A stretch of DNA of 32,000 nucleotides from an uncultured Planctomycetota bacterium (lineage in GTDB: Bacteria; Planctomycetota; Planctomycetia; Isosphaerales; Isosphaeraceae). Of this stretch, positions 16,399-25,657 are shown in pieces. The stretch covers positions 545,359 through 577,358 of the forward strand of contig CAVXHV010000018.1 of NCBI GenBank assembly GCA_963761445.1. The letters run 5' to 3'. The notes beneath the pieces were generated by a model, which worked only from the letters and a program-made list of their open reading frames with translations, did no database searches and was not told the origin of the DNA. Every line of letters starts with the position of its first letter. Position 1 is the stretch's first letter. A program made the position numbers and the translations under genes.

Positions 16399-16781
16399 GA
16401 CGACGATCGTCGCCAGCCGGGCGATGCGCGCGGCTCGCGCCAGCTCGGTAAATCGTTCAGGCTGTCGCCACCGATCAAGAAGAACAGGTCGTCCTCCGGC
16501 CGCTCGCGTGACACGTATTCCAGCGTCTCCACGCTGTAATGCGGGCCGGGCCGTATCGCCTCGATCTCCGAGACCGCAAACGACGGGTGGCCGGCGACCG
16601 CGATCCGCGCCATTTCGAGTCGATGAGCGACCGCTGTCCGCTCGCCGCGCTTGTGCGGTGGCTCGCCGGCCACCACAAACCAGACACGCTCGAGCTCACA
16701 ACTCTCGCGACACTGGTCCGCCAGGACGAGATGCCCCAGATGGATCGGGTCAAACGTGCCTCCGAAAATTCCCAGTCGCAT
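16395..16781 (-). CDS. nadD: Nicotinate-nucleotide adenylyltransferase, N-terminal fragment (apparent frameshift)
   Basis: ATG at 16781: MRLGIFGGTFDPIHLGHLVLADQCRE...VWFVVAGEPPHK...VSEIEAIRPGPHYSVETLEYV...FFLIGGDSLNDLPSWREPR, then junk and a stop at 16395. It carries the GxFxPxHxGH nucleotidyltransferase motif. Confidence 0.85.
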   Translation of the reverse strand: MRLGIFGGTFDPIHLGHLVLADQCRESCELERVWFVVAGEPPHKRGERTAVAHRLEMARIAVAGHPSFAVSEIEAIRPGPHYSVETLEYVSRERPEDDLFFLIGGDSLNDLPSWREPRASPGWRRSSS

Positions 16782-16973: not shown

Positions 16974-19388
16974 ATGGATCCCGAGCCAGGCGACGGCCAG
17001 AAGCACTCTGGAGAAGAAGACCAGAGTCGCGGCTTGGCTCCGGGCCCTGTCCCAGGTGACGACAGTCTGATCGCCCTTCGCCAGGGAACGTGGTTTGGCA
17101 TCTCGGATGCCCCTCCTTTGCCTGCGGGTCCGTACGCGGGCGTCGTTTTCAACCGGCCGATCGAGCAGGTCCTGTCCTACCACGTCCCCAGCCGGCTCGA
17201 GCGGATCATCCGCCCCGGACAGCGCCTGCGAGTTCCCCTGGGCCAGGGCAATAAGCTCACGGTCGGCTATTGTGTGCGAGTGGATGATGCCGCGCCGGCT
17301 GACCTCGATTCCGCGCGGATCAAGGATGTCGTGGAGGTGCTTGATCCGTCGCCGCTCATCGATTCCAAAATGCTGGCCCTCACGCGGTGGATGGCCGACT
17401 ACTACGCATGCTCCTGGGGGCAAGCGCTCGACGCCGCCGTGCCCGCCGGTGTCAAGAAGCATGCCGGGACTCGGATCGCCACTTTCTTGACGGTGCCCGA
17501 GGAAGTGCGCGAAGCGCTCGTGGCCGGCAAGATCGACCCACCGCTGACCCCCAAGCAGTCCGCCGTGATGGACGTGCTCCTCCGCGGCGATTTGCTGAGT
17601 GTCGGCGACGTATGCCGGCGGGCGAAATGCGCGCCGGGGCTTGTCCATGCCCTGCGCGGCCGCGGGTTGGTGCGTCCGGTGCGGAAGCGGCTTCCGGTCG
17701 GACTCGCGGGGGCGACCGCGGCTCGTGCCACTGATCCACTGCTCGATTCGGGCGCCCCCCCGGCCACAGACCGCGAAGAGCCGTTGACCTTGACCGCGGA
17801 ACAAGAAGCGGCACTGGTGCGGCTCGAAGCGGCGATCGCTGCGGGCAGCTTCGGTCCGTTCTTGATTCACGGAGTCACCGGCAGCGGAAAGACCGAGGTG
17901 TATCTGAGGGCGATTGAACAGGTGGTGGCGCAGGGACGTGAGGTGATCGTTCTGGTGCCCGAGATCAGCCTGACGCCGCAGACGATCGAGCGCTTCAGCC
18001 GGCGGTTCGGCAAGGTGTCCGTGCTGCATAGCCACCTTTCCGACGCAGAGCGCCACCGCTACTGGCAGAGCATCGCCTCCGGCGAGGTCCAGGTGATCGT
18101 GGGTGCGCGCTCGGCCGTCTTCGCGCCGGCCCGGCGACTGGGCTTGATCGTCATCGACGAAGAGCACGAAAGCACGTTCAAACAGGAGACTACCCCGCGA
18201 TACCACGCGCGCGACGTCGGCGTCAAGCGCGCCCAGTTGGAGGGGATTCCGGTGCTCCTGGGCTCGGCGACGCCCTCGCTCGAATCGTGGCAAAACGCCC
18301 AGCTCGGCCGATATTCCCTGGTCTCAATGCCGTTTCGAGTCAGCGGCCGGTCCCTGCCGGGAGTCGAAATCATCGACTTGCGGCACGAGAAGACGGCTCT
18401 TGGGTGCTTGAGCCAGCCGCTGCGCCAGGCGATGCACGACTCACTCTCTGCCGGCGGCCAGGTGATCCTGCTTTTGAACCGCCGGGGTTTCCATACCTTC
18501 GCTCTCTGTCCGCGATGCGGCGAAGTCGTCAAGTGCCATGCGTGCGACGTGGCGACGACGTACCATAAAAAACGCCACATTTTGATTTGCCACACCTGCG
18601 ATGCCGAACGCCCCTGCCCGCAGGCATGCCCGGGCTGTGGCGCGCCCAAACTTTACTATGGGGGCATCGGCACCGAGCGGCTCGAGCGCGAGATAGAGCT
18701 CGCGTTTCCGGGCGTTGCCTCGCGCCGGATGGATTCCGACACGATGCGCGGCAGCGGTAGCCACGAACGCGTGCTCAGGGCGTTCCAGACCGGTCAGGTC
18801 CGGATCTTGCTTGGCACCCAGATGATCGCCAAAGGGCTCGATTTTCCCAACGTCACCCTGGTGGGCGTCGTCAGCGCCGATACGGCGCTTCATTTGCCGG
18901 ATTTCCGCGCCGCCGAGAGGACGTTTCAGCTCATGGCACAAGTCGCGGGCCGAACCGGAAGGGGAGATCGACCCGGACGCGTGATCGTGCAGACCTTTTC
19001 ACCGGAGCACCCCGCGATTCAGCTCGCGGCCCGTCACGATTTCGTGGGATTTGCTCAAATCGAGCTGCCAGTCCGGAAAGCGTTCGGTGTTCCACCCTAC
19101 GGCAGACTGCTGCGGGTGATCGCGCGGGGCAGCAATGAAGCAAGCGTTCGATCATACATGGACGAATTGGGCGAGGCGTTCGCCTCCGAGTCTGACCCCT
19201 CCGTGCGGATCTTGGGCCCGGCGCCGGCGCCGGTCAAGAAGATTCGCAATCTCCATCGGTTCCATCTCCAGCTTCGTTGCCCGAACTCGAAGCCGCTCAA
19301 GCTGTTGGCAGGCGTGATACCACGCCGCTATCCGCCGCCGGAAGGTGTCGAGGTTGCCGTCGACGTCGATCCGATCTCCATGCTTTGA
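16974..19388 (+). CDS. priA: Primosomal replication-restart helicase PriA
   Basis: Motifs seen: YAGVVFNRPIEQVLSYHVP, LIHGVTGSGKTEVY (Walker A), VIDEEH, and the Cys-rich zinc region CPRCGEVVKCHACDVATTYHKKRHILICHTCDAERPCPQACPGCG. I chose the ATG at 16974; the ORF is open from TTG 16908. Confidence 0.9.
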   Translation: MDPEPGDGQKHSGEEDQSRGLAPGPVPGDDSLIALRQGTWFGISDAPPLPAGPYAGVVFNRPIEQVLSYHVPSRLERIIRPGQRLRVPLGQGNKLTVGYCVRVDDAAPADLDSARIKDVVEVLDPSPLIDSKMLALTRWMADYYACSWGQALDAAVPAGVKKHAGTRIATFLTVPEEVREALVAGKIDPPLTPKQSAVMDVLLRGDLLSVGDVCRRAKCAPGLVHALRGRGLVRPVRKRLPVGLAGATAARATDPLLDSGAPPATDREEPLTLTAEQEAALVRLEAAIAAGSFGPFLIHGVTGSGKTEVYLRAIEQVVAQGREVIVLVPEISLTPQTIERFSRRFGKVSVLHSHLSDAERHRYWQSIASGEVQVIVGARSAVFAPARRLGLIVIDEEHESTFKQETTPRYHARDVGVKRAQLEGIPVLLGSATPSLESWQNAQLGRYSLVSMPFRVSGRSLPGVEIIDLRHEKTALGCLSQPLRQAMHDSLSAGGQVILLLNRRGFHTFALCPRCGEVVKCHACDVATTYHKKRHILICHTCDAERPCPQACPGCGAPKLYYGGIGTERLEREIELAFPGVASRRMDSDTMRGSGSHERVLRAFQTGQVRILLGTQMIAKGLDFPNVTLVGVVSADTALHLPDFRAAERTFQLMAQVAGRTGRGDRPGRVIVQTFSPEHPAIQLAARHDFVGFAQIELPVRKAFGVPPYGRLLRVIARGSNEASVRSYMDELGEAFASESDPSVRILGPAPAPVKKIRNLHRFHLQLRCPNSKPLKLLAGVIPRRYPPPEGVEVAVDVDPISML

Positions 19389-19453
19389 GCGGATGCGACG
19401 ACCGTCCGCCGCCGGCCAATCCAGAATTCCTCCGATATTTCACTAAAGTTCGA

Positions 19454-19482
19454 TTTACAAGATTGCCGCCAGCGGTTATTTT
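19454..19482 (+). promoter_or_regulatory. Sigma-70-like promoter candidate: TTTACA - 17 nt - TATTTT
   Basis: It sits in an AT-richer patch of the 452-nt priA/PEP-CTERM intergenic region. The hexamers and the 17-nt spacing were read directly. The promoter consensus of this lineage is not known to me. Confidence 0.3.
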
Positions 19483-19517
19483 GCCGCCCGTTCGTTCACA
19501 CCCAGGATTCGTGACGG

Positions 19518-19539
19518 GGAAGCTTATGGACAAGCTTCC
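19518..19539 (+). other. Perfect 8-bp stem / 6-nt loop hairpin GGAAGCTT-ATGGAC-AAGCTTCC
   Basis: Read directly from the sequence. There is no T-run after it, so it is not a classical terminator. It lies within the putative long leader of the PEP-CTERM gene. Confidence 0.3.
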
Positions 19540-19808
19540 GCCAGTTCGGGCAGGGAGGCCGGGTATGCGAACAAGTCACTTTCGGCTTCCGTCTCCTGAT
19601 ACTCCAGGTCGCGACGATCCGGGCTCGGCCGCATGGTTGGTGCGGGCCCCGGCTGGTGTTGTGAGAGCCGCCATCCGTGTCGTTCGTTCAACCGGTTGCC
19701 GGGATCGGTCTTTCCCGGATTAACAGGGAGTCGGTCCGGAGCACTTCGGCCCCGGGGGAACGCCACACTTCACTTCCAGACGAAGACGTTGCGAAGTCGC
19801 CTAACGGA

Positions 19809-19833
19809 ATGCGACTATCCCATCGGTATTCAG
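19809..19833 (+). repeat. 25-nt repeat, copy A (ATGCGACTATCCCATCGGTATTCAG), directly upstream of the PEP-CTERM gene SD
   Basis: Read directly from the sequence. Its partner at 21159-21183 is the reverse complement with a single mismatch at the central base. Confidence 0.9.
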
Positions 19834-19840
19834 GAGGATC

Positions 19841-20545
19841 ATGATGCAGATGACACAGGGGTGGACCAGGCTACGAATCGTGGCCATCGCCCTGGGGCTG
19901 TTCACCTCGGCCACCGCAGGCGCAAAGGCCGACGGTATTCTGACCTACAGCACCTCGGGATACGTCAACGGGTCGACCGGAGTTTCGACCATGCTCGACG
20001 GCACAACCGTGGCTCCGACCACGAATGCGATCACGTACGCGTCCGTCAACAACACCACCGTTGACACGATCTCAAACCTGGCTCTTGGTGAATTCCAGGT
20101 GGCGCCGCTGGCTGCCAATATGACGACCACCTATACCAATACGCCATTCAGCTTCACGCTGATTCCCTCGGCCTACAATGGGGCAGCACTTTCCAACTTC
20201 ACGCCCCTGACGATCACCGGCGTGTTGAATGGAATGCTCACAGGTAGCACGCAGTCGAGTGTGATTGCCACGATCAGCTCGATTTCAGAAAACACTTTCC
20301 AGCTCGGCGGTGCGACGAGCACGCTGGCTGGCCTGCCGAATCAGGTGCTGCTCGTGCCCAACTCGGGCCCCAACTCGAACGGTGGCGTAACCACGCTGGA
20401 AGCCGCGATCAACACAGTCGGGACAGTGAATCCTGCCCAGGCGCCCGTGCCCGAGCCCAGCACCATCGCGTTGTTCCTGACCACGGTGGGCGGTCTGGCC
20501 CTTCGGAGATACGTTGTGGCCCGGCGCCCCCGCGCCCTGGCCTGA
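19841..20545 (+). CDS. PEP-CTERM sorting-domain protein (secreted, Thr/Ser/Asn-rich)
   Basis: AGGAGG lies 4 nt upstream of the ATG. The signal peptide is RLRIVAIALGLFTSATAGAKA. The C-terminus PVPEPSTIALFLTTVGGLALRRYVVARR has the PEP motif, a TM helix and a basic tail. Confidence 0.85.
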   Translation: MMQMTQGWTRLRIVAIALGLFTSATAGAKADGILTYSTSGYVNGSTGVSTMLDGTTVAPTTNAITYASVNNTTVDTISNLALGEFQVAPLAANMTTTYTNTPFSFTLIPSAYNGAALSNFTPLTITGVLNGMLTGSTQSSVIATISSISENTFQLGGATSTLAGLPNQVLLVPNSGPNSNGGVTTLEAAINTVGTVNPAQAPVPEPSTIALFLTTVGGLALRRYVVARRPRALA

Positions 20546-20651
20546 CTTGAAACGGGAGACGAAAGTCTCTCGCCCCCCGGAGAGCGGATCGAGCCGAGTT
20601 GACTGCTCGCCGCTTTCCCCCGGAATCCCTCGATCGAATCGATCACACCCC

Positions 20652-20687
20652 GGCCCTCGGCCGCGCCAGCGTCCGAGGGTCTTTTTC
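20652..20687 (+). terminator. Candidate intrinsic terminator downstream of the PEP-CTERM gene
   Basis: CCCTCGG (20654-20660) pairs perfectly with CCGAGGG (20673-20679) across a 12-nt loop, followed by TCTTTTTC. Confidence 0.45.
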
Positions 20688-20699
20688 GTTGAGTTCGAG

Positions 20700-21251
20700 T
20701 CAACGGCTACCGCCGGGTTTTTCCGTCCTGCCCTGTTGGAGCTCCGCGACTTTGCGCTCGAGCTCGCTCAAGCGCCCAAGGAGCGCGGCTTTCTCGGCCG
20801 CTTCCTTATCCATGATCTTCATCTCGTATTCCGCTTCGAGATGACGCTGGCGAGCTTCACTCAGGTCGGCGATCGTTCCCCTACCCACCTGAATCTCGGC
20901 ATCCTCGCGCTTCGCGATCTCCTCGAGAATGCTCACGTGGCGCTTCCGTATCTCCGCGCGGTCCGCGTCGGTCTTGGCGGCAAACAGCTCCGCCTTCTCG
21001 AGGCGCTCCAGACCATCAATAAAACGGTCAACTGTCATGCGCCCTTCTTCGTAATAAGCCTTCTGCGCATCGACCCGCGCGGGCTGCGGCAAGTAGCTTG
21101 GCAAGCTGCGGATCAACATCAACCGGCCTGCGAAGTGCGCCAGTCGTCGGCTTTCGTACTGAATACCGATCGGATAGTCGCATCTCTCCGCCGCTTTCGT
21201 CGGCAGCCGGTTTGGGGTCCTGCGCATGAGTTCTTCCCAGGAGCAGAGCAC
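20700..21251 (-). CDS. Coiled-coil domain ORF; probably the C-terminal extension of the sigma-factor gene 21028..22164 (frame change), or else a separate gene
   Basis: VDAQKAYYEEGRMTVDRFIDGLERLEKAELFAAKTDADRAEIRKRHVSILEEIAKREDAEIQVGRGTIADLSEARQRHLEAEYEM...LSELERKVAELQQG is clearly coding. The first ~60 codons of the listed ORF are of uncertain status. Confidence 0.6.
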   Translation of the reverse strand: MLCSWEELMRRTPNRLPTKAAERCDYPIGIQYESRRLAHFAGRLMLIRSLPSYLPQPARVDAQKAYYEEGRMTVDRFIDGLERLEKAELFAAKTDADRAEIRKRHVSILEEIAKREDAEIQVGRGTIADLSEARQRHLEAEYEMKIMDKEAAEKAALLGRLSELERKVAELQQGRTEKPGGSR

Positions 21252-22164
21252 CGCCCCCCGTGGTTGCGATCCCTAACGATAGGACGACACATCCGGCGAT
21301 CGTCAGTTTCTTGAGCAGCATGGTCGTGAGTACTCCCTGGGCCAGTTCCGCCGCGGCCACCGGCAACGAGCCAGCGGCGGCGGACTGGCCGAATGTGAAT
21401 TGTGTTGCCGTGCGGGCCACGGATGAGGCGAGCTGCTCCGGTAGAACCGCTGATGCGGCCGCCGCCGCTGACGCAGCCGCATCACCGACAAGCCAGGCGG
21501 CCAGGGGCCCGATGGCCGAGGGGGCCGAGATACCGCGGCGGGTCAATCGGAACCGAAGCGTGCTCCTTGCCCGCGAAAGCCGGCTGCGAACGGTCCCCAC
21601 CGGACAGCCCAGCCGCGTAGCAGCCTCCTCGTGGGTCAACCCCTCGAGGTAACAGAGAACGACCGGCGATCGGTACTTCTCGGGCAGCCGGCCAACCTCC
21701 TGATGCACCACCGCCGCGCCGTCGGCTCGTTCGATAGACGCACCGGCGCGTGACTCGAGCAGAGGCAGCACGACAGAACGCACCGCCCCGAGTACCCGTC
21801 GGTCGCGAATCTCCCGCCGGATCGAATTGGCCCGTCCCCGCGCCGCGACCCGGAGAGCGACCCCGTACAGCCAGCTCCCGACGCATTCCCGATCACGGAT
21901 CGCGCCAGCCCGGCGCGCCAGCACGAGGAAGGTCGCCTGAAACGCGTCGTGTAGTGCCAAGGGATCGGTCAGAAAATGCCGGCACACGCCCAGCACCATC
22001 GGCCCGTGCCGCGTTACCAGCGCCTCGAACGCCTGCTCACCGTGTTCCCCTCCGACTTCTTGGAATCGGTCGATCAACTCGCCGTCGGTCATCCCCGCGC
22101 ATGTGCCGACATCAAAGAGAGCTTGCAGATCGCCCGTCAGGCCTCGCGAAGATGAACCTGGCAT
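21028..22164 (-). CDS. ECF-type sigma factor (extended class) with a C-terminal TM helix
   Basis: DLQALFDVGTCAGMTDGELIDRF...AFEALVTRHGPMVLGVCRHFL...DAFQATFLVLARRAGAI...VGSWLYGVALRVAARGR...LPEKYRSPVVLCYLEGLTHEEAATRLGCPVGTVRSRLSRARSTLRFRL. The TM helix is LTIAGCVVLSLGIATTGGGALLLG. The last ~15 codons (GRCAEGLLRRRAHDS) look out of frame. Confidence 0.85.
   Translation of the reverse strand: MPGSSSRGLTGDLQALFDVGTCAGMTDGELIDRFQEVGGEHGEQAFEALVTRHGPMVLGVCRHFLTDPLALHDAFQATFLVLARRAGAIRDRECVGSWLYGVALRVAARGRANSIRREIRDRRVLGAVRSVVLPLLESRAGASIERADGAAVVHQEVGRLPEKYRSPVVLCYLEGLTHEEAATRLGCPVGTVRSRLSRARSTLRFRLTRRGISAPSAIGPLAAWLVGDAAASAAAAASAVLPEQLASSVARTATQFTFGQSAAAGSLPVAAAELAQGVLTTMLLKKLTIAGCVVLSLGIATTGGGALLLGRTHAQDPKPAADESGGEMRLSDRYSVRKPTTGALRRPVDVDPQLAKLLAAARAGRCAEGLLRRRAHDS
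21159..21183 (-). repeat. 25-nt repeat, copy B (minus strand reads ATGCGACTATCCGATCGGTATTCAG), inside the sigma-factor extension coding region
   Basis: Read directly from the sequence. It is 24/25 identical to copy A in inverted orientation. On the plus strand both copies have C at the centre. Confidence 0.9.
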
Positions 22165-22338
22165 GGCACCTCAACCCCTTCCCGCGCACTGAAGTCACTC
22201 TCCCGCAATAGTGCACCTGAAGTTGGTTTTCCGATCTGGTTTTTTCAGATTTGCGCAAGTCGCACTCGCGTTGGCAGTTGCTTTCGCTCACAGCATGCCG
22301 CGCGGCAAGAGCGTGCTCCCTACGCTACCGCCGCAGCG

Positions 22339-23979
22339 TCACCCGCTCCGGCCGGCTTTCATCTTCCGGAACCGATCTATCAGCGCATTGGTCGAGCTGT
22401 CATGACCGAGCTTCGCCTCGTCCTTGCTTTGCAGCTCGGGAATGATTTTCTTCGCCAGCGCTTTGCCGAGCTCGACGCCCCACTGGTCGAACGAGTTGAT
22501 CTCCCAGATCGTTCCCTGGGTGAACACGCTGTGTTCGTAAAGCGCGACCAGTGAACCCAGCACTTCCGGAGTGAGCCGCTCGCCCAGGATCACGTTCGTC
22601 GGCCGGTTGCCTTCAAACGTGCGGTGGGGGATCAGGAAATCGTCGACGCCCTCAGCCTTGAGCTGTTCGGCCGTCTTGCCGAACGCGAGCGCCTCGGCCT
22701 GAGCAAAGACGTTCGACATCAGCAGGTCGTGGTGGTCGCCCAACGGATTGAGCGAATGCCCGAACCCGATCAAGTCGCAGGGAATCAGCCGGGTTCCCTG
22801 ATGGATGAGCTGGTAGAACGAATGCTGGCCGTTCGTGCCGGGCTCGCCCCAGTAGACCGGCCCGGTCTGATACGCGACCCGCCGCCCGTCGAGCGTCACA
22901 CTCTTGCCGTTGCTCTCCATCGTCAACTGCTGAAGATAAGCCGGGAATCGCTTCAAGTACTGATCATATGGCAAAACGGCCGTCGTCTCCGCTCCCAGGA
23001 AGTCAGTGTACCAGACCGAAAGGAGCCCCATGAGCACCGGCAGATTCCGCTCGAATGGCGTCGTGCGAAAATGTTCGTCCATCGAGTGGAAGCCGTCGAG
23101 CATTCTCTGGAAATTGTCCGGGCCGATCGCGATCATCGTCGAGAGCCCGATCGCGGAATCCATCGAGTATCGCCCGCCGACCCAGTCCCAGAACCCGAAC
23201 ATGTTGGCCGTGTCGATCCCGAACTTGCTCACTTCGTCGTGATTGGTCGAAACCGCGACGAAATGGCGGGCCACCGCCTGTGAGTCTGCAAGCGCACGCA
23301 AGCTCCACTCGCGGGCCGTGCGGGCGTTGGTCATCGTCTCCAGCGTCGTGAATGTCTTGGACGAGATGATGAACAACGTTTCGGCCGGATCGAGGTCGAT
23401 CGTCGCCTCGGCGAAGTCGGTACCATCGACGTTCGACACGAAGCGGAACCGGAGCGCACGCTCGCTGTAATGCTTGAGCGCCTCATAAGCCATCACCGGC
23501 CCCAGGTCGGAGCCGCCGATGCCGATGTTGATGACGTTGCGGATCGGACGCCCGGTGTGGCCCTTCCATTCGCCACTCCTGATCCTCGAGGCAAACGTCG
23601 CCATCCGATCGAGCACCTCATGCACCTGCGGCACGACATCTTCGCCGTCGACCAGAATCGATTGTCCTCTCGGCGCGCGAAGCGCAACGTGCAGTACCGC
23701 GCGGCCCTCGGTGACGTTGATCTTCTCGCCCCGGAACATCGCGTCGATACGCTCGCGCAGCCCCGATTCCTCGGCGAGATTCTTGAGGAGGTGAAGGGTC
23801 TCATCGGTCACGCGATTCTTGGAATAGTCGAGGAAGAGACCGGCCCCGGAGGCGGTCAAGCGCTCGCCCCGGCCGGGGTCATCGTGGAATAAGCCGCGGA
23901 GATGCACCGCGATCGACTTCTGATGATGTTCTTCGAGTGCGCGCCAGGCCGGGCACTCGCGCAGAGGCTTCCGTATCAT
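22339..23979 (-). CDS. pgi: Glucose-6-phosphate isomerase
   Basis: ATG at 23979 ([20 protein letters not shown]...). Full-length PGI similarity: [68 protein letters not shown]. The 198 codons upstream in ORF 22339..24573 overlap pgm and are junk. Confidence 0.95.
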
Positions 23980-24014
23980 CGTCGGGCTCCAGGTGCAGGG
24001 ATGGTCTCGGGCCG

Positions 24015-24638
24015 TCAAGTGCTCAAAGCGTCGGTCACGATGCGCTGGGCTTCCGCGATGATGGCATCCAGGTGGGCCTGGTCGCGGAAGCTCTCGGCAT
24101 AGATCTTGTAGATATTCTCGGTGCCCGAAGGACGCGCTGCAAACCAGCCCGTCGCAGCGACGACCTTCAACCCGCCGATGGGGGCCCCGTTGGCCGGTGC
24201 GCGGGTCAGCTTGGCCACAATCGGCTCGCCGCCAAGGTCCGATGCTTTGACGTCCGACGGATCGAGCTTCTTCAGGCGCGCCTTCTGCTCGGGGGTCGCC
24301 TCCGCATCGATTCGCGTGTAGAACGGTGTACCGAACTCCTTGGTGAGCTCGTGGTAGTGCTCGCCCGGATCCTTGCCGGTCCGGGCGAGAATCTCCGCGG
24401 CGAGCAGGTCGAGGATGGGCCCGTCCTTGTCGGTCGTCCACACCGAGCCGTCGCGCCGCAGGAAACTCGCGCCGGCGCTTTCCTCCCCACCGAAGCAATA
24501 CGAGCCGTCCAGCAGCTTGGCGCAAACCACTTGAACCCCACCGGAACTTCGGCGAGCGGCCGGTTGAGGGCATTCACAACCCGGTCGATCAAGCTGCTGC
24601 TCACAAGGGTCTTTCCCACCTTGGCATGCGCCGGCCAT
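24015..24638 (-). CDS. pgm: Phosphoglucomutase (alpha-D-glucose phosphate-specific), C-terminal fragment (other frame)
   Basis: [63 protein letters not shown]...[30 protein letters not shown] parallels the E. coli Pgm C-terminal third. The part of the listed ORF upstream of about 24520 is junk. Confidence 0.9.
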
Positions 24639-25657
24639 TGGTCGCGGTGCGTGAGCAGATAGCGGATCGCGACGGCCAGATAATGGTTAGGGTTCATGAG
24701 GCCCGTGGACTTGGTGACAATCCCGTGCCGGTCGGAATCGGGGTCGTTCCCGAAGGCGACGTCAAACCGGTCCTTGAGCTTGACCAGACTGGCCATCGCA
24801 AACGGACTGGAACAATCCATCCGGATCTCGCCGTCATGGTCGAGCGTCATGAAACGGAATGTTGGATCGATCGCCGCGTTTGTGACCGTGATATCGAGGT
24901 CATAACGATCGGCGATCGGCTGCCAGTAATGAACGGCCGCCCCGCCCAGGGGGTCGACCCCGATCTTGACCTTCGCGGCCCGGATTGCCGGCATATCGAT
25001 GACGCTCGCCAGGTCGGCGACGTAGGGCTCGACAAAATCGACCTCGAGGGTGGTGCTCGCCCTGATCGCCGCGGCAAACGGCACACGCTTGATCGAGTCG
25101 ATGCCCGAGCGAAGCAGGCTGTTGGCGCGGTCCTCGATCCAGGAGGTGACGTCCGAGTCGGCTGGGCCGCCGTGCGGCGGGTTGTACTTGAACCCGCCGT
25201 CGCGGGGTGGGTTGTGGGACGGCGTGATCACGATGCCGTCGCACCTCCCGGTTGTGCGGCCGGAGTTATACGACAAGATCGCGTGCGAGATCACCGGTGT
25301 CGGTGTCACACCGTCGTCACGCTGCAGAATGGTCTCGACGCCCGCCGCGGAAAGCACTTCGAGCGCCGTTCGCTGCGCCGGCTCGGAAAGCGCATGCGTA
25401 TCCTTTCCCATGAACAGAGGACCGTCGATTCCGCTCATTTTGCGGTAATCGCAGATGGCCTGGGTCATGGCCACGATGTGCGACTCGGTGAAGGTGCAAT
25501 CGAGCGATGAGCCGCGGTGGCCGCTGGTGCCGAAGATCACCCGCTGCGCCGGCTCGGTGGGGTCGGGCCGATTGGCGTGATAGGCTCGCTCGAGCGCCGG
25601 CACATCGATCAGAGCGCTCTCGGGCGCGGGCTGTCCCGCCAGAGGATGATTGGCCAT
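24272..25657 (-). CDS. pgm: Phosphoglucomutase, N-terminal fragment (apparent frameshift)
   Basis: ATG at 25657 with AGGAG 8 nt upstream. Motifs seen: [10 protein letters not shown] (active-site Ser loop), [62 protein letters not shown]. After that the frame is junk to the stop at 24272. Confidence 0.9.

Follow-up and report, generated by a model that had tools for sequence, protein, structure and literature searches.

Inverted repeats of 10-30 nt that lie around about 1 kb of regulatory and coding DNA are known from the invertible switches, among them the hix and gix sites of Hin and Gin, the fim switch and the invertons of Bacteroides. In an invertible switch both arms are expected to be found in relatives, together with a recombinase, symmetry of the half-sites and a matching core. 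Inverted copies of a short stretch can also be made by mutation, and template-switch mutations that produce them, in coding genes as well as elsewhere, have been documented (PMC7202029, PMC7954356, PMC8604942). Quasipalindrome switching in E. coli (PMC7202029, PMC6357072), short-range switches (PMC7954356) and switches that change a protein (PMC8604942) all use a nearby template and copy it as the reverse complement. In templated insertions of the FoSTeS/MMBIR type (PMC5120786) the donor is kept, there is little or no homology at the junctions, and an in-frame insertion into a protein is possible. Filler DNA at end-joined breaks, as in bacterial Ku/LigD NHEJ and in polymerase- or RT-assisted MMEJ (bioRxiv 10.1101/2022.03.14.484287), consists of a short, locally derived insert with 0-1 nt of microhomology.

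The locus described here lies in a stretch of 32,000 nt, referred to as the window, from a MAG of 16.07 Mb in 21 contigs (G000). A 25-nt inverted repeat encloses 1.3 kb holding a PEP-CTERM gene and the 3' part of a sigma factor gene, and the initial annotation offered three readings of it: (a) recombination sites of an invertible segment, (b) a shared site co-regulating the two genes, and (c) the footprint of a past duplication or insertion. The third of these was borne out. We put at roughly 80% the probability that the repeat was left by a single lineage-specific templated mutation, in which a piece of the PEP-CTERM leader was inserted, reversed, in the sigma gene. With the invertible switches the locus has its dimensions in common, but a nearby recombinase, symmetry of the arms, a matching centre, a second arm in the sister species and any sign of two orientations are all lacking. 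The nearby template, the reverse-complement product, the preserved donor and the scant junction homology are those of template-switch mutations and FoSTeS/MMBIR-type insertions, although the distance of 1.3 kb is longer than typical, no seeding quasipalindrome is present and the mechanism is read from the product only. Filler DNA is matched in the short local insert, the 0-1 nt of microhomology and the presence of Ku; here, however, a sign of a break is lacking and the Ku hit lies in two frames. The locus thus offers a clean, datable case of reverse-complement templated insertion over 1.3 kb, by which eight in-frame residues would have been added to a bacterial regulator. Template switching or break repair can make both inverted repeats and protein insertions, and comparative data are needed before a lone long inverted repeat is read as a DNA switch.

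The inverted repeat and the genes around it

Reading of the window and a repeat search placed copy A (ATGCGACTATCCCATCGGTATTCAG) at 19809-19833 on the plus strand and copy B (ATGCGACTATCCGATCGGTATTCAG) at 21159-21183 on the minus strand, inverted with respect to copy A and matching it at 24 of 25 positions, as first described. The sole mismatch is indeed at the centre, where the plus strand has C in both arms; read along the orientation of each arm, the two central bases are unlike. The early estimate that a chance match is negligible also held, with no comparable pair (up to three mismatches) in 100 dinucleotide-preserving shuffles of the window. When up to three mismatches were allowed, the whole 16.07-Mb genome contained copies A and B only. 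One copy of the 25-mer is present in the genome of a sister species of the same genus (G001, a MAG of 16.5 Mb); apart from that MAG, none was found in a collection of 185,579 species, and none in metagenome contigs. A dispersed repeat family (REP/MITE-like), for which the annotation had considered dozens of genomic copies, was accordingly dropped, with two copies in G000, one in the sister genome and none elsewhere.

Copy A forms the last 25-30 nt of the 5' leader of the PEP-CTERM gene. That gene (19841-20545, plus strand) encodes a protein of 234 aa with a signal peptide, a variable domain and a PEP-CTERM sorting tail, scoring 22.4 bits with TIGR02595 (cut-off 16) and just under the cut-off of Pfam PF07589. 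Its orthologues are present in 23 of 24 family genomes searched. The AGGAGG Shine-Dalgarno (SD) sequence of the gene occupies 19832-19837 and overlaps the final two bases of copy A, rather than beginning 1 nt beyond it as had been stated. A sigma-70-like promoter (TTTACA-17-TATTTT, 19454-19482, plus strand) would drive the gene together with its leader of about 360 nt (19483-19840, plus strand), which is apparently structured. The gene is followed by a hairpin resembling an intrinsic terminator (GGCCCUCGG...CCGAGGGUC and a U run, 20652-20690, plus strand; fold z = -3.1), 93-100% of which is kept in the sister genome. The PEP-CTERM and sigma transcripts converge, and they are probably separate because this hairpin and U run end the PEP-CTERM gene.

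Copy B lies within the coding sequence of the sigma gene, in the linker just past the TM helix, and the same motif is present in the sense orientation in both the PEP-CTERM and the sigma mRNA; both points agree with the initial annotation. The open frame at 21028-22164 (minus strand) encodes an ECF sigma factor with regions 2 and 4 and no region 3 (PF04542, PF08281 and TIGR02937, all above their cut-offs), followed by the TM helix and linker with which its C-terminal extension begins. The C-terminal coiled-coil (OEP-like) domain of the same gene (20700-21078, minus strand; PF02321, 25.9 bits) is carried by another open frame, at 20700-21251 on the minus strand, and is 86% identical to residues 355-480 of the sister protein. 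ECF sigma factors with fused C-terminal extensions are known (PMC7826278, PMC8999054), and this one is like them in that a single polypeptide, unbroken in the sister species, combines sigma regions 2 and 4 with a TM helix and a C-terminal domain; its extension is composed of the TM helix and the OEP-like coiled coil. ECF sigma genes with a TM helix and C-terminal extensions make up a very large set of paralogues (G000 has 271 first-look candidates, the sister genome 320), and the 26 candidates that were scored all gave E <= 1e-20 in many large family genomes.

Elsewhere in the window there are housekeeping genes (priA, pgi, glycogen phosphorylase, acetate kinase, PFK and others), as well as a kinase and a SLATT/Nudix cassette. 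Between 11390 and 16180 (PFK, the Nudix-like and SLATT-like genes and their neighbours) the window has no nucleotide counterpart at the syntenic site of the sister, which has about 1.4 kb in place of these 4.8 kb.

Origin of the second copy

The sister genome is colinear with the window over 17078-25000, at 85% identity and with gene order unchanged. Copy A is unchanged there (100% identical), and identity is 95-100% over the roughly 100 nt that surround it. At copy B, the alignment has a clean gap of 24 nt, corresponding to 21159-21182 of the window, ie copy B consists of a 24-nt insertion and the base at 21183, which was already present. This 25th base (T on the plus strand, the A of an ATG on the minus strand) predates the insertion according to the sister, so that common descent applies to 24 of the 25 nt and the templated stretch of copy A is 19810-19833. 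In the protein, the insertion adds eight in-frame residues, MRLSDRYS, to the linker past the TM helix: the sister linker reads ...SRGE|IRKPT..., and that of the window ...SGGE-MRLSDRYS-VRKPT.... The sister orthologue is a single unbroken frame of 482 codons that runs into the coiled coil and is without the eight residues. The closest sigma orthologues from four further genera likewise have linkers of the sister length without MRLSDRYS, and in the alignment of all six sequences the residues are unique to G000, being absent from the orthologues of five genera. Given the gap in the sister and the absence of the residues from the other genera, copy B was inserted in this lineage. The alignments show copy A to be ancestral and copy B to be derived and unique to G000, the insertion being seen in one assembled MAG consensus and its timing resting on one sister and the outgroups. 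The insertion site is flanked by a short direct repeat (window 21150-21210, minus strand), which in the sister reads ACGGAAGCCGA-GGAGAGAT-ACGAAAGCCGA.

The target is a poorly conserved stretch of linker, about 40% of which differs between G000 and the sister beside copy B. Copies A and B, 1.3 kb apart and inverted, match at 23 of the 24 inserted positions. A single difference in 24, set against a linker that is about 40% different between the species, suggests that the event was recent. Copy B also shows the leader variant specific to the genus (ATG..GGTATTCAG) and would therefore have been copied from the leader of its own lineage. Could the insertion be older than the species split and have been deleted precisely in the sister? 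The genus comparison includes two genomes only, in which strict parsimony sets one event against two. A precise 24-nt deletion, however, would have been guided by a flanking direct repeat of just 1 nt, and the low divergence of copy B from copy A again speaks for a recent event. We regard an older insertion as highly improbable; even with a deletion in the sister, the origin of copy B is still a templated insertion.

These comparisons also bear on the suggestion that recombination between the arms inverts the segment. The sigma factor would then be cut short after the repeat and followed by the PEP-CTERM gene, and the coiled coil would come to lie behind the PEP-CTERM leader. The geometry fits: a stop follows four codons past the repeat in the inverted form (...TCA GGA GGA TCA TGA), as had been predicted, and the ATG of the repeat would, after inversion, share the frame of the linker and coiled coil. 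One arm, however, is missing in the sister although gene order is alike, and the assembly and the sister each show one and the same orientation of the segment. As the annotation had noted, the window holds no recombinase gene; its Pfam-scanned ORFs gave housekeeping, kinase, SLATT and Nudix matches or no match at all. The 25-mer is without internal dyad symmetry (its half-sites match at 2 of 12 positions), the centres of the arms are mismatched when each is read in its own orientation, and the 16.07-Mb genome contains no further such sites. Nor would general recombination readily serve, since the arms offer perfect homology of only 12+12 nt, which is short for efficient RecA-mediated exchange. 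An invertible segment is thus left unsupported, and we judge it extremely improbable.

A templated inverted insertion would account for the locus as follows. The 24 nt of the PEP-CTERM leader at 19810-19833 would have been copied as their reverse complement into the ECF sigma gene, 1.3 kb away. The target would have been the variable linker right past the membrane helix, where 24 nt keep the reading frame and add the residues MRLSDRYS. A later or concurrent change from C to G on the sigma sense strand would then have given the central mismatch. Two routes may be envisaged. In the first, a replication template switch, a nascent strand would, for example, have moved to the other template strand within about the length of one Okazaki fragment and then returned (FoSTeS/MMBIR-like). 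In the second, a templated or filler fragment would have been captured during end-joining repair of a break. The mechanism is deduced from the product alone, and the two routes cannot be told apart because the junctions share only 0-1 nt. One end has 1 nt of identity; the other has 0 nt, with imperfect matches at 4 of 6 positions beyond it. Inspection of the junctions by eye under both strand models, for a longer microhomology or a seeding quasipalindrome, gave only this 0-1 nt. GC skew, considered for the direction of the fork, was too weak to choose between template-switch models. An AGGAG common to the sister target flank and the donor SD was considered as a guide, and was rejected as it would not yield the observed product.

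The span of 1.3 kb counts against a template switch of the short-range kind, for which tens to hundreds of bases are usual in the literature, and the microhomology at the junctions is minimal. A gene for Ku (PF02735) is present in G000 and makes end joining possible. It is the sole Ku hit in the genome (G000:C4:3008930-3009420) and is split in two adjacent pieces in different frames. Among the further indels of at least 10 nt in an alignment of about 18 kb between G000 and the sister, none has a remote inverted template. Copy B is the sole indel of this kind there and therefore points to a single event, with no pervasive process at work in this region. The inverted repeat itself is probably neutral because the linker that hosts it evolves fast.

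Frame breaks in CG runs

In the assembly of G000 the gene, which lies on the minus strand, changes frame between its sigma part (21028-22164) and its coiled-coil part (20700-21251). The description of the coiled coil as the 3' part of the sigma gene is upheld by the single frame of the sister, and does not hold for the frames of the present assembly. The two are one gene only if the loss of 2 nt at a CG run (21076-21083; CCCG--CGCGGG when aligned with the sister) is disregarded. Reading through this break gives ...LLAAARARVDAQK..., of the same length as ...LLAAAHVRVDAQK... in the sister. The nadD gene in the same window is broken by the loss of 1 nt at a similar GCGCGCGG run (16425-16433; GCG-CGCGG when aligned with the sister). 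The alignment also has 1-2-nt indels in the sister at sites within priA and pgi, and the pgi frame is visibly broken there. All of these lesions are likely to be systematic consensus errors of long-read MAGs, and that in the sigma gene is independent of the 24-nt insertion. In another genus, the orthologue of the sigma/coiled-coil gene (L020, G021:C20:127951-132081) is also in two frames, near an EEGRITVDRF motif.

Such breaks raise the question of whether copy B itself arose as an error of assembly or consensus in a long-read metagenome bin. Both genomes are MAGs, and their consensus has small frame-breaking indels, at nadD and the sigma gene in G000 and within priA and pgi in the sister. All of these are of 1-2 nt, whereas a reverse-complement copy of 24 nt with exact boundaries and one substitution would be another kind of error, and it is in frame and in a tolerant linker. 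An artefact is, in our view, distinctly unlikely.

The leader that supplied the copy

The donor of the inserted fragment is far more widely conserved than the repeat. The core of copy A (GCGACTATCCCATC) hardly varies among 18 genomes from many genera, and the arrangement ...CCAGACGAAGACGTTGCGAAGTCGC..GGATCGCGACTATCCCATCC.TTTCAGGAGG... is kept upstream of PEP-CTERM orthologues in other genera, the proteins of which are 40-54% identical. Conservation extends over the whole intergenic region of about 400 nt (window 19440-19840), including the promoter, TTTACA-17-TATyTT, both hexamers of which are kept across genera. Of 121 family genomes, 24 (from 14 of 53 genera) have a leader that is recognisable from its nucleotide sequence, one per genome, and it lies directly 5' of the PEP-CTERM gene wherever both positions were compared (G008, G012, G015 and G021).

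RNAalifold predicted 71 pairs from 15 leader sequences. When the predicted partners are taken together, 93.8% of the alignment cells form a pair, compared with 37-54% when the partners are slid by 1-3 columns. Sixteen pairs are changed on both sides, as against 6.7 +/- 1.9 in shuffles, none of 500 of which reached 16, and the hairpin at window 19518-19539 contains six covarying pairs. The predicted partner of the SD sequence is an invariant UUCGUCC some 165 nt upstream (GUCGUUCGUCC being the predicted anti-Shine-Dalgarno segment), and that of the UCCC within copy A is an upstream GGGA. Both of these helices are invariant, and covariation speaks neither for nor against them. The leader and both copies (region 19200-21400) gave no match in Rfam at E up to 1. 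Taken together, the pairing statistics indicate that the leader is probably a structured RNA, and it is a candidate for a new cis-regulatory RNA in which the SD is predicted to be sequestered. As a by-product of the analysis the leader is useful and of more interest than the repeat, and many large-genome Planctomycetota carry it.

Against this predicted structure, the copied stretch is an arbitrary fragment of the leader and no functional module, because copy A holds only the 3' arms of three helices (13, 16 and 17) together with the first two bases of the SD. A local RNA fold as the reason for the motif was rejected, copy A folding no better than shuffles (z = +0.3 to +0.7). The same structure bears on the suggestion that the 24 nt are a site for an RNA-binding protein, an sRNA or a DNA-binding protein, which would tie the sigma mRNA to the control of the PEP-CTERM leader, or a decoy for the 5' arms of the leader. 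The sense orientation of the motif in both mRNAs is in favour of such a site, as is the strong conservation and structure of the donor leader, in which the copied stretch is predicted to pair upstream and adjoins the SD; the insertion, moreover, preserved the reading frame. Copy B, however, is conserved nowhere and is present in one genome only, and so gives no sign of selection; the copied stretch is unlike any complete structural element of the leader, and an in-frame length is expected by chance in one of three insertions. The local fold of copy B is also only mildly better than that of shuffles (z = -2.2 over 81 nt and -0.7 over 141 nt). The comparative evidence hence leaves a shared co-regulating site unsupported, and we consider it quite unlikely.

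A templated insertion may itself have been followed by co-option of the pasted fragment, either as a decoy in the sigma mRNA or shared target of whatever reads the leader, or through an occasional inversion by which the two genes exchange their 3' ends. Such co-option appears very unlikely; if the decoy reading were true, an ECF sigma factor would be coupled to a cell-envelope protein. Two further features were seen in the PEP-CTERM gene downstream of the leader. At 20367-20378 there is a tandem-like duplication of 12 nt (CCCAACTCG..), which is without counterpart in the sister. Directly after its highly conserved signal peptide the protein is hypervariable, the nucleotide identity to the sister falling to 17-47% over window 19920-20015 compared with an average of 85%.
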